From the IMG/VR virus record IMGVR_UViG_2778260969_000002: 7,315 bases of DNA. One strand, given 5' to 3'. Below, piece by piece: positions 3,001-6,000 of this stretch (position 1 is its first letter; every line of letters starts with the position of its first letter). This DNA is from a virus. Taxonomy: Duplodnaviria; Heunggongvirae; Uroviricota; Caudoviricetes. Position numbers: made by a program.

Positions 3001-6000
3001 CATTTTGCTGGTACGCACGCCAAGCATGACAACGCCACCGTCGATACCAGGCGCACTTCTTTGCTCCAGTTTTTTGGTCTTAAGCCACAGGGCAGTGAAC
3101 AGGTCTTTCCAGTCTTCCGGCGCCAGCCGTTGACCATGCCATAGCACCTGACGCGAAACATCGTTCAGCATCGGCCACATGCGGTCATTCTGCGCTTTGC
3201 TGCGCTTGGGTTCTTTAACGTGGACTTCGTGGGGTGACTTGTCGTCGATGGGTAGTGAGAGAATGGCGTCTATGGCGTTATTTCTGATTGCTTCGTTGCG
3301 AAGCAGAAAGGTTTGCTTCATCTCCTGCTCTCCGGTTCCATTTTTCAGTAGCCGCAGCAACTGATGGTGCCCATGCCACCCTGGCTTCACAGAGGTCACA
3401 TTCTGCATAGCCCCACACATCAATATTTATTCCGGCCTCAACCCACAGACGAGCATTACCGCCGCAAAACGGACATTCTTTTAGCTTTGGCTGGGTTAAT
3501 GATAGGTCGCTCATGCTCACTCCTTCACTTAAAATCCAGACTCCGGATAATTCTGTTGCGCTGAAACTCATTGTTGAGTTTGAACAACCGTCGAAGAACA
3601 CGGTCACGCGGATAGCGTCGTGCGGCAGGTGAATGCTCATACAACTCATCAAGCGGCAAACTGGACGATGAACGATACCGATACCAACGCACCAACTCTT
3701 CACGAAAATTAGCCCTGACAAGCTCAGCTATCGTACTCATTTCTTAAAACCTCCTCAAACGCATTCTGACGCATTTTTCATTCTCGCTGCTTATCGGTAT
3801 ACCTTGCACGTGCTTACCTCACCACAGAGCGATTGTGATGCCTTAAAAGCGATTTATTGAAGTGATATTTGCTTAATCGAAATTCTTTTCTTTGATTCCT
3901 GCGGCCCTGATGGCTTTCATTACTGCAATTACCGTTTTGTCACGCCCATCCTCATAACCCATCGCATAAGCACCTTCTTCACCATCTTTCCAAAGGTCGT
4001 CATTCGATTCGGGCCAGTCGATATCCAGTTCAATAGCTGCTCGCGATGCCTGCCATAAAGCCCACCAATCATTTAAGGAGTGACGAATATCCATGCTTGA
4101 AAATGCGAAGTACCTATCACCATTTCTTGCCTCGGTTATCATCTCGAATGGTAATCTCAATTTTTTGGCAACGTATTCCTCAAACTGCTTTCTTGATTCG
4201 TCCATATCAATCACCGTTAGTCGTTTCACTCACGAATCTGACAAAACCAGCCATGTTAATTTGCATGAGTTTTTTCAACACTTTGTCTCGTCGGCTACGT
4301 TTTGGTTTTGGCCTGTGATTGAATCTTTCACAAACTGGAAGGCTCGATGATTTCCAGTACCTATTACGCCTTGCTCCATCTTCAGCCATATCGGCATGAA
4401 TAAGGTCTGCGAGTGTGCTCATATTCACCTCTTCCAGTTACATTGGTTTTGTAATGTTGCTAGTCATCGTTCGAATAACAAAATGCGTAAGTAACCTTGC
4501 TTTCCACATGTAAATCTATTCAAGGCGAGATAAATCTACGAATACCGGACCTTTGTAATCTGGTCTTGATGCCCTTATGTATGAGCTAATAGTTTGTGCA
4601 TCTTGCTTGTCCAGATTCATGACTTCCCTCTCCCCCAAATAAAAAGGCCTGCGATTACCAGCAGGCCTTTATCTTTTTTTAACACGCTTTCGAGTCCTTT
4701 TATATTTTTCCTTAAGATATTCCGCAAGTTTATCCTCATCATTATTAAATTGAGATAAAAGCTCATGCTCGCAATTAAGTGCTTTACTCGCATAAGTTCC
4801 ATATAGTTTCTTTCTTGCTAGTGCTGCTATGAATGCTGCATCTTCTTTGCTATCGAAATACCCTAACGATATTGTCTTATTTTTATAACCAACATAAGAC
4901 TTCCACCTGCCAGTTGGCTTATACCAAGACACTCCAATTGCACCGGATGTGTTTAATCTATTCCCTACAATGTTTCTTGCATTCTGCTCTTCTGTTGCCA
5001 GTCTTAGGTTTGAAATCCTATTATCAAGTCTGTTCCCATTTACATGATCAATAAACTTAGGAGGCCATTTTTTGTATACATAGAACCAAGCAAGTCTATG
5101 CGCCTTATACAAAACATTATTTATACTAATGCATATATAACCACCACTAACACCTCCAGCAATACTACCTTTTACTCTTACTACTGAATTTGTTTTTAGC
5201 CATTTAAATATTCCTGTTTCTGAGTCATATGATAATGTTGACAGAAGCTCATCGTGATCAATTAGTTTTTTTATTCGCATAAAGAATATACTTAATAATA
5301 TATACAGTAAGAACCATTAGTAACGATAACCCTGCTATTAGCTCAGTGATGTAGATGGTCATACGTCAGCCCCTTGTGCATATCGTCTGCCACGCGCAGC
5401 AGGTGCATTTGATGCTGTGCAAATCTGTCTGGCTTCATCCTGGTCACATGCAACAAAGTGTCCGTTACAGAACCGCTGGTAAACTGTACCAAGCGAGCCA
5501 AAACGGTTTTTCGTCACGATGATTTCAGCAAATGGCGCGGCGCTACTGTTCTCATCATATACCGCTTCCCGATAGAGCATGATGATTGAGTCTGCGTCCT
5601 GTTCAATGCTTCCTGAATCACGCAAATCTGCGTTTGTCGGGCGTTTGTTTGGTCGCTTCTCAACATCGCGCGAAAGCTGACTCAGGGAGATAACCGGTGT
5701 TTTCAGGTCTTTCGCCATCGCCTTCAGGCTTCCGGAGATGTGAGCAATTGCGAGGTCGTTGCGGTCTGCTTTCGGCTTCTCAATCAGGCCAAGATAATCC
5801 GCCATGATGAGTGACAGGTTTGGATTTTCCTGCTTATGCCGTTCTGCGATTGAGCGTATTTCTTCGACCGATAACCGCGAAGCATCGACTACCCATACAT
5901 CCAAATCTGCAAGCTGACTCATGCCGTTAGCAACACGTGCCCAGCCCTCGTCATCCATCGATGCAGGATTTCGCAGTACGCTAACCGACATCCTCCCGGC

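Follow-up and report, generated by a model that had tools for sequence, protein, structure and literature searches.

From its sequence, the 7,315-nucleotide stretch of viral DNA analysed here (the window; IMG/VR record IMGVR_UViG_2778260969_000002) probably carries a free-standing homing-endonuclease gene (HEG) of the HNH-AP2 type, borne on an AT-rich insert of 665 bp within the lambda ninA/tR2 linker. In lambdoid phages, the replication and nin modules are connected by this linker of ~70 nt. The genes of the window are all on the minus strand, as are the features described below, and their order is that of the lambdoid early-right operon. Read along this strand, a DnaB-type replicative helicase gene ('P, DnaB analogue'; 5359-6735), which is upstream context outside the element, is followed by the HNH ORF, a terminator, two DUF7301 genes, a Lar-like gene, NinB, a Dam methylase and antirepressor-like genes. 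Positions 4400-5600 are 100% identical to the Stx phages phi330, Stx2a_WGPS4 and SH2026Stx1, in whose records the HNH ORF is named 'HNH endonuclease' or 'endonuclease'. The insert (4666-5330) has a GC content of 33.4%, while the helicase gene is at 52.3% and the remaining window at 48.7%. An earlier, sequence-only reading had described an AT-rich, separately acquired HNH-AP2 nuclease gene, free-standing between the helicase gene and an accessory cassette. Its account of composition and position is borne out, the block being placed between the DnaB-type helicase gene and the nin region, and the domains of the protein and the absence of the gene from ~95% of related phages (both described below) likewise support a free-standing gene of foreign composition.

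Alignment to insertion-free relatives, which the same reading had proposed as a check, gave the exact junctions. These were defined first against Nil2, which has the same helicase gene (99.7% identity) and lacks the HNH gene, and then across 31 occupied and 120 empty IMG/VR loci, with lambda as a further empty allele. Since AGG is present at both ends of the block, its boundaries are ambiguous by 3 nt. The span originally given for the island, 4643-5313, was close to the insert, but the true boundaries against the empty alleles are 4666-5330 (+/-3 nt). The sequence of the empty site is ATGACCATCTACATCACTGAGCTAATAACAGG^CCTGCTGGTAATCGCAGGCCTTTTTATTTGGGGGAGAG; it is carried by lambda (NC_001416) at 40567-40640, where the insertion point corresponds to 40598^40599. 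At the lambda locus the ren stop and the ninA ATG overlap, canonical tR2 forms the hairpin, and a GGGGGAGAG stretch precedes the ninB start. The intact small ORF at this site is NinA (~25 aa; phrog_5907, E=1.6e-19), translation of which starts 30 bp before tR2 and stops at a codon 16 bp past the terminator (PMC4824070). The insert splits ninA within codon 11, where the tR2 hairpin has its 5' foot, leaving a linker arm on either side. The upstream arm (5331-5362; 32 nt) consists of the ATG, which overlaps the helicase stop (ATGA), and the first ~10.7 codons of a lambda-type ninA. It equals lambda 40567-40598 but for two base differences, one of which is the insert-linked SNP ATAGCAGG, and is common to occupied and empty alleles, where it follows at least 7 different upstream genes. 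The downstream arm (4628-4665; 38 nt) was at one time the 3' part of ninA and contains the remainder of the tR2 hairpin along with the U-tract and GGGGGAGAG, which is the ribosome-binding site of the first nin gene.

The SNP ATAGCAGG (versus ATAACAGG), located 5 nt upstream of the junction, is found in 28/28 occupied alleles and in only 4/120 empty alleles (p=3e-26), consistent with co-conversion of a flanking marker. The putative conversion tract is visible at this one SNP only and is untraceable beyond the linker, because the flanks are non-homologous after 32 and 38-44 nt. Of the two positions 5334 (T/C) and 5340 (A/G), only 5340 is linked to the insert; at 5334, where the window and Nil2 differ (T/C), an immunity change was considered and rejected, as most empty alleles share the window base. 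On its two sides the insert is flanked by an imperfect 8-nt direct repeat, ATAGCAGG ... ATAA-AGG. In phage 1717, ISEc8 seems to coincide with the HEG boundary, but this impression is created by the 8-bp target duplication GGTTATCG of the IS; the element is placed within the first 8 nt of the insert.

The HNH ORF (4669-5280, stop codon included) encodes a protein of 203 aa that matches phrog_99 ('HNH endonuclease') in PHROG with E=9e-72. Residues 58-102 (4975-5109) form an HNH_3 (beta-beta-alpha-metal) nuclease core, as judged from Pfam (E=2.9e-15, covering all 46/46 profile positions), the family alignment and the predicted fold. Residues D78, H79, N81, D86, N87 and N91 lie inside this core and N103 just past its end; all of them occupy family-invariant columns in an alignment of 40 sequences and all are kept in the window protein. 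The motif, the catalytic His and the Asn/Asp metal ligands of an HNH_3 or I-HmuI-type His-Me finger nuclease are all present, so that mutated catalytic residues, one finding that would have spoken against the proposed endonuclease, are not seen here. Residues 114-161 (4798-4941) correspond to an AP2 DNA-binding domain. The Pfam AP2 match (PF00847; E=1.6e-6, 28.7 bits) is under the gathering score of 33.3 bits; PF00847 is precomputed for homologues of the protein, and the region has sequence matches to the plant AP2 chains 7wq5 and 7et4. A search of PDB sequences with the full 203-aa protein matched only plant AP2 domains and I-HmuI. To examine the fold, an AlphaFold model was built from the 40-sequence alignment (pLDDT 90) and compared by Foldseek. 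In this model strands at 117-142 are followed by a helix at 145-163, and the predicted domain matches AtERF1 (1gcc) with a TM of 0.70 and an rmsd of 2.1. The AP2 domain is thus confirmed in the modelled fold, with a sub-threshold sequence score. The remaining residues, 165-203 (4672-4788), make up a lineage-specific C-terminal extension of 39 aa with two predicted helices and a basic tail, KRTRKRVKKR, which was not found in any of the 39 aligned homologues. Membership of a defence system was rejected, the only indication being a weak PADLOC 'HEase' match (E=4e-4).

Homologues of the HNH-AP2 protein occur in 3438 phage records. Their identity to the window protein is ~42% among phages and at most ~53% among metagenomic sequences, and no relatives were found at 60-99% identity apart from P0004, a chimera (62% overall) in which the first 65 residues are identical and are fused to another HNH-AP2 gene. 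Across this gap the lambdoid lineage stands isolated. Comparison of ten HEG alleles revealed 9 synonymous and ~8 non-synonymous changes (pN/pS ~0.24), with one shifted locus excluded and a two-base K59Y change merged; within the HNH motif only synonymous changes are present. On this allele count, the ratio bears the mark of purifying selection. Full-length copies predominate, while a few are split, frameshifted or truncated in some E. coli genomes, and in some Stx phages IS elements just upstream cut the gene off from the operon. Such a mixture of mostly intact and a few decayed copies fits the usual HEG life cycle. The gene is not embedded in an intron or intein: a group I intron was rejected for want of an Rfam match, and the search of the region for Rfam introns and other RNA families returned only sub-threshold, terminator-driven matches.

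Presence or absence of the insert is polymorphic at one precise site in otherwise homologous genomes. Among phage records the site is occupied in 20 and the linker is intact in 375, while among 5426 complete E. coli genomes 126 are occupied (138 places, with up to 3 in one genome) and 1885 have an intact linker. Occupancy of the ninA/tR2 site is therefore ~5%, and ~95% of related phages lack the insert there, including lambda and Nil2, in which the site is intact. Universal carriage of the gene by relatives, with the same boundaries and ordinary composition, would have argued against separate acquisition, and neither the distribution nor the 33.4% GC of the insert shows this pattern. HK022 also carries the HNH gene. 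No Salmonella phage record is occupied, though 85 of them hold the linker, and a scan of GTDB with one genome per species gave one further copy only, on an E. coli contig, and none outside Escherichia. In all occupied loci the junctions are identical; homology always begins exactly at the ninA ATG and ends 38-44 nt beyond the insert. At every locus the HNH gene lies between replication and nin genes, yet the genes themselves vary, with at least 6 unrelated upstream 3' gene ends (including those of the DnaB analogue, Ren, the HK022 P gene and a toprim primase-helicase) and several different first nin genes downstream, in 18 upstream/downstream combinations. Copies of the insert are 97.6-100% identical between many unrelated flanking gene pairs, and single HEG alleles are found in different flanks.

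The hairpin at the 3' end of the gene (4643-4670) is the lambda tR2 intrinsic terminator, as shown by terminator calling, folding and its match to lambda and Nil2. It has a 10-bp G+C-rich stem, is called on both strands, and folds with -18 kcal/mol on the minus strand and -18.8 kcal/mol on the plus strand. The arrangement is that of tR2, GGCCUGC-UGGUAAUC-GCAGGCC followed by UUUUUAUUU, after ren/P and before the nin genes; the hairpin is identical to lambda NC_001416 at about 40596-40627 and is annotated as tR2 in Nil2. The HNH stop codon TAA (4669-4671) overlaps the first bases of the stem, and the insert bases 4666-4670 (the AAAGG end of ...GATAAAGG) provide the outer 5' arm, extending the stem from 8 to 10 bp. 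Since lambda and all empty alleles have an identical tR2, the terminator is an element of the phage backbone and not of the island. On the plus strand, the T-run is complementary to Lys/Arg codons at the 3' end of the HNH gene and is not found in the empty alleles, so that the bidirectional look of the terminator arises because the Lys codons AAAAAAAGA end the gene. The earlier suggestion that the gene ends inside a strong bidirectional terminator hence holds as far as the hairpin and its calling on both strands are concerned, but the structure is canonical lambda tR2 and does not form part of the island. Termination at tR2 falls from about 90% to under 10% when ribosomes halt a few bp ahead of it (PMC4824070). 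We speculate on this basis that translation of the HNH gene could affect read-through of tR2.

No Shine-Dalgarno sequence precedes the HNH ATG, the preceding bases being ...AAGTATATTCTTTATG, in agreement with the sequence-only reading. That reading had also placed a sigma70-like promoter, TTCTTA-17-TATATT (5285-5313), so close to the ATG that the transcript would be nearly leaderless. The motif is present, matching 3/6 and 5/6 of the consensus hexamers (8/12), but it was left uncalled in a consensus promoter scan of the window, and matches that are equal or better number 15 in the 665-bp insert versus 14.3 +/- 4.4 in shuffled sequences. A promoter belonging to the gene was accordingly rejected, with the motif at chance frequency. 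We also rejected the possibility that the start codon is hidden by RNA structure, as nothing significant was found around the HNH start (z=0.29). A hybrid small ORF of 34 aa, ninA' (5258-5362; annotated as HK022_56), which had not featured in the earlier reading, provides a means by which translation could be coupled inside the pR operon. It opens at the helicase stop (ATGA), spans the HNH ATG and ends 20 nt past it; only its residues 1-12 match the NinA family phrog_5907, and the HNH ORF, in a different frame from ninA', has a start and a stop of its own. With the ninA' stop 20 nt beyond the HNH ATG, termination-reinitiation could plausibly give low-level translation. We infer that expression from pR with translational coupling through ninA' is more likely than expression from an own promoter. 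The HNH gene would be transcribed within the pR early-right operon, upstream of tR2, and its translation would be held low, with no Shine-Dalgarno site and with an ATG that lies within ninA', itself coupled to the helicase stop.

A homing cycle at this site might proceed as follows. During lytic growth or co-residence of lambdoid phages, the enzyme would nick or cut an intact ninA/tR2 site, with specificity provided by the AP2 domain and the N-terminal sheet and possibly directed at the G+C-rich hairpin DNA. The HEG-bearing allele is proposed to be protected from its own enzyme because the insert splits the target site. The break would then be repaired from the HEG-bearing genome through the arms of 32 nt and 38-44 nt, or through longer homology where the flanks match. 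Recombineering indicates that arms of 32 and 38-44 nt are within the usable range of phage Red/RecT/Erf-type recombinases. Our literature searches found no cleavage or homing assay and no paper on the gene, its target site or its activity. A bolder form of the proposal, in which the enzyme recognises the tR2/ninA linker DNA itself and hops between non-homologous phages by way of the 32/38-44-nt arms and single-strand-annealing recombinases, seems to us quite unlikely. It would exploit the one sequence common to nearly all lambdoid phages at the replication/nin boundary. If it were true, breaks made by the enzyme would drive mosaic exchange where the replication and nin modules join. The last stop codon used in translation would also be shifted onto the tR2 stem, such that translation of the nuclease would tune N-independent read-through into nin/Q and, in Stx phages, would reach the path to toxin expression.

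The spread of the insert may also be explained without a role for the nuclease. Conservation of the linker extends to hundreds of phages whose flanks are unrelated, which makes it a recombination joint in itself, and ordinary homologous recombination at such a conserved mosaic joint could carry the insert from phage to phage, which counts against homing. On this account the gene would be passive cargo (a 'moron') that entered by one illegitimate insertion, and any nuclease activity would serve another purpose, for example degrading competing phage or host DNA. The TSD-like imperfect 8-nt repeat flanking the insert is not what clean homing would leave and hints that the founding insertion was illegitimate; the low occupancy of ~5%, together with the lack of an occupied Salmonella phage, argues against efficient drive; and the chimeric copy fused to another HNH-AP2 gene shows that recombination reshuffles the element. 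On the other hand, the family is otherwise known for homing endonucleases (PMC5714182, PMC10448857), and the splitting of a highly conserved sequence by the insert is the classic arrangement for self-immunity. The tight linkage of the flanking SNP and the presence of up to 3 copies in one genome also speak against a purely passive element. We consider passive cargo unlikely.

A nuclease that is already dead, encoded by a gene drifting to loss, could account for the decayed copies that some E. coli genomes carry and for the IS insertions that disconnect the gene from the operon in some Stx phages. Such a relic would not be expected to remain full length in most copies with every family-invariant residue kept, nor to show a pN/pS of ~0.24 with no non-synonymous change in the HNH motif, and we regard it as highly improbable. 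It is harder still to credit that the protein is a functional phage component, either a terminase-partner packaging HNH protein or an AP2-type regulator of the early operon or of tR2. HNH proteins can belong to phage DNA packaging machines (PMC5714182), AP2 is a DNA-binding module, and the gene's stop codon lies in the stem of tR2, which is repressed by ribosomes stopping just before it (PMC4824070). The gene is nevertheless far from any terminase gene and encodes a protein of the HNH_3/I-HmuI group rather than a packaging HNH; its place between replication and nin genes differs from that of packaging-associated HNH genes of the HK97 gp74 type, which lie beside the terminase genes near cos, and this assignment was rejected. 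The gene is moreover dispensable, being absent from 95% of relatives, and its conserved nuclease residues would be needless for a pure regulator. Overall, a free-standing homing endonuclease remains the reading that we favour.

Identification of the gene alone changes mostly nothing: the HNH-AP2 gene is already annotated in HK022 and several Stx phages and belongs to a known kind of element, real but ordinary. The exact insertion site in lambda ninA/tR2, as defined by the alignments, is a small addition. Its value lies in a precise and testable target, in that the uninterrupted site is the tR2/ninA sequence of lambda known from textbooks, and HK022 (HEG+) and lambda (HEG-) are both standard laboratory phages. 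If the enzyme is active, it would exemplify selfish nucleases that act at a mosaic joint in temperate phages, Shiga-toxin phages among them, and might yield a novel enzyme for site-specific nicking or cutting.

The closest known counterparts are annotated twins of the gene, namely HK022 gp57 (HK022_57, 'putative endonuclease', NP_597900), ACI43126 of Stx2 phage 1717, AKI86754 of PA28 ('homing endonuclease'), and the copies in SH2026Stx1 and Stx2a_WGPS4. They share 98.9-100% DNA identity with the window across the whole insert and occupy the same insertion site. The records of these twins give a product name only, and neither they nor the papers found describe the target site, the disruption of ninA or the activity. 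More widely, HNH-AP2 proteins are a recognised family of homing endonucleases from phages, cyanobacteria and ciliates (PMC10448857 and PMC5714182, both citing Magnani, Sjolander & Hake 2004). The window gene has the same order of an N-terminal HNH_3 and a C-terminal AP2 domain (PHROG 99), and like other family members it is free-standing, AT-rich, phage-borne and sporadic in distribution. It differs in its isolated lineage, in the added 39-aa helical and basic C-terminal extension, and in its occurrence in temperate lambdoid phages, whereas the sampled HNH-AP2 phage relatives are largely from lytic phages.

With I-HmuI (PDB 1u3e), an intron-encoded HNH nicking endonuclease of Bacillus phage SPO1, the N-terminal beta-sheet and the beta-beta-alpha-metal core of the modelled protein superpose (106 aligned columns, rmsd 3.8, Foldseek probability 1.0), while the sequence match is marginal (E=0.23). 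The C-terminal DNA-binding part of I-HmuI in 1u3e is helical and is not an AP2 domain. In contrast to the intron-encoded I-HmuI gene, the window gene has no intron, and the DNA-binding module of its product is AP2. Both proteins fall in group 2 of the His-Me finger nucleases (PMC5714182). The free-standing HEGs of T-even phages (Seg, Mob) resemble the window gene in lying between conserved genes at a module boundary, in keeping with the idea that nuclease genes serve as markers for the limits of genetic exchange (PMC10448857). Polymorphism of presence and absence, a linked marker in the flank and the lack of an own promoter are probable further likenesses to the T-even genes. The Seg nucleases are GIY-YIG enzymes. 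Unlike Seg, the protein encoded in the window belongs to another nuclease family, its host phages are temperate, and its proposed target is a terminator-containing linker rather than an essential gene.

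The insert that carries the HNH gene is bordered by an imperfect 8-nt direct repeat (window 5333-5340 and 4664-4670), which reads ATAGCAGG upstream and ATAA-AGG downstream; empty sites hold one copy, ATAACAGG. The repeat looks like a degenerate target-site duplication. Such duplications are not a product of clean homing, and the repeat may be a trace of an illegitimate founding insertion.

In empty alleles, the NinA ORF is a single reading frame (window 5331-5362 plus 4617-4665; lambda 40567-40644, which corresponds to 368-445 of L158, the lambda region). This hydrophobic ORF of approximately 25 aa contains the entire tR2 hairpin, and ATGA overlaps chain it to its neighbours on both sides, P or ren upstream and the first nin gene downstream. 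The hybrid 34-aa ORF of occupied alleles is hydrophobic too. Since natural variants within NinA codons 1-10 are mostly synonymous (about five versus two non-synonymous, counted by eye), there is a hint that the NinA peptide, or translation of ninA, matters. The bidirectional appearance of tR2 is due to a plus-strand T-run (window 4672-4680). Roughly half of the occupied loci have the K202N variant (AAAAACAGATAA), which makes this run weaker, and the run is probably not a product of selection.

A chimeric HNH-AP2 gene, encoding protein P0004, was found in Logan contig SRR10380363_203 (L157 3919-4520). Codons 1-65 match the HNH gene of the window exactly, as does the upstream junction; beyond codon 65 the gene continues into a different HNH-AP2 3' half that is higher in GC and directly overlaps rusA. 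The locus has neither tR2 nor the early nin genes. The P0004 gene is either a recombinant of two paralogous homing endonuclease genes or an assembly chimera. In an E. coli MS 196-1 prophage (L162 1-450), the copy of the endonuclease gene is frameshifted and a second gene annotated 'HNH endonuclease' lies directly 3' of ninF, which suggests that some nin regions hold more than one nuclease gene.

Elsewhere on the minus strand of the window, the nin region carries two DUF7301 paralogues less than 700 bp apart (4207-4428 and 3525-3740; E=1.8e-31 and 3.8e-26, respectively). The ORF6N/P22_AR_C antirepressor-like protein (1133-1897, minus strand) has a short tandem peptide repeat around 1560-1650 (29 residues), which implies that its gene holds a tandem DNA repeat of approximately 30 bp.

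In O157 Stx phages, IS elements lie close upstream of the HNH start (loci L004/L156, that is phage 1717, and L012; L008 and L011). ISEc8 has the target duplication GGTTATCG (window 5323-5330), and an IS3-family end (TGAACCGCCCCGG...) lies at about window 5311; each element separates the HNH gene from the helicase and ninA' reading frames. Within the phage collection, the ninA/tR2 linker is present in 85 Salmonella phage records, including P22 (92% identity), none of which has the insert; the occupied phage records are all from Escherichia or Stx phages.
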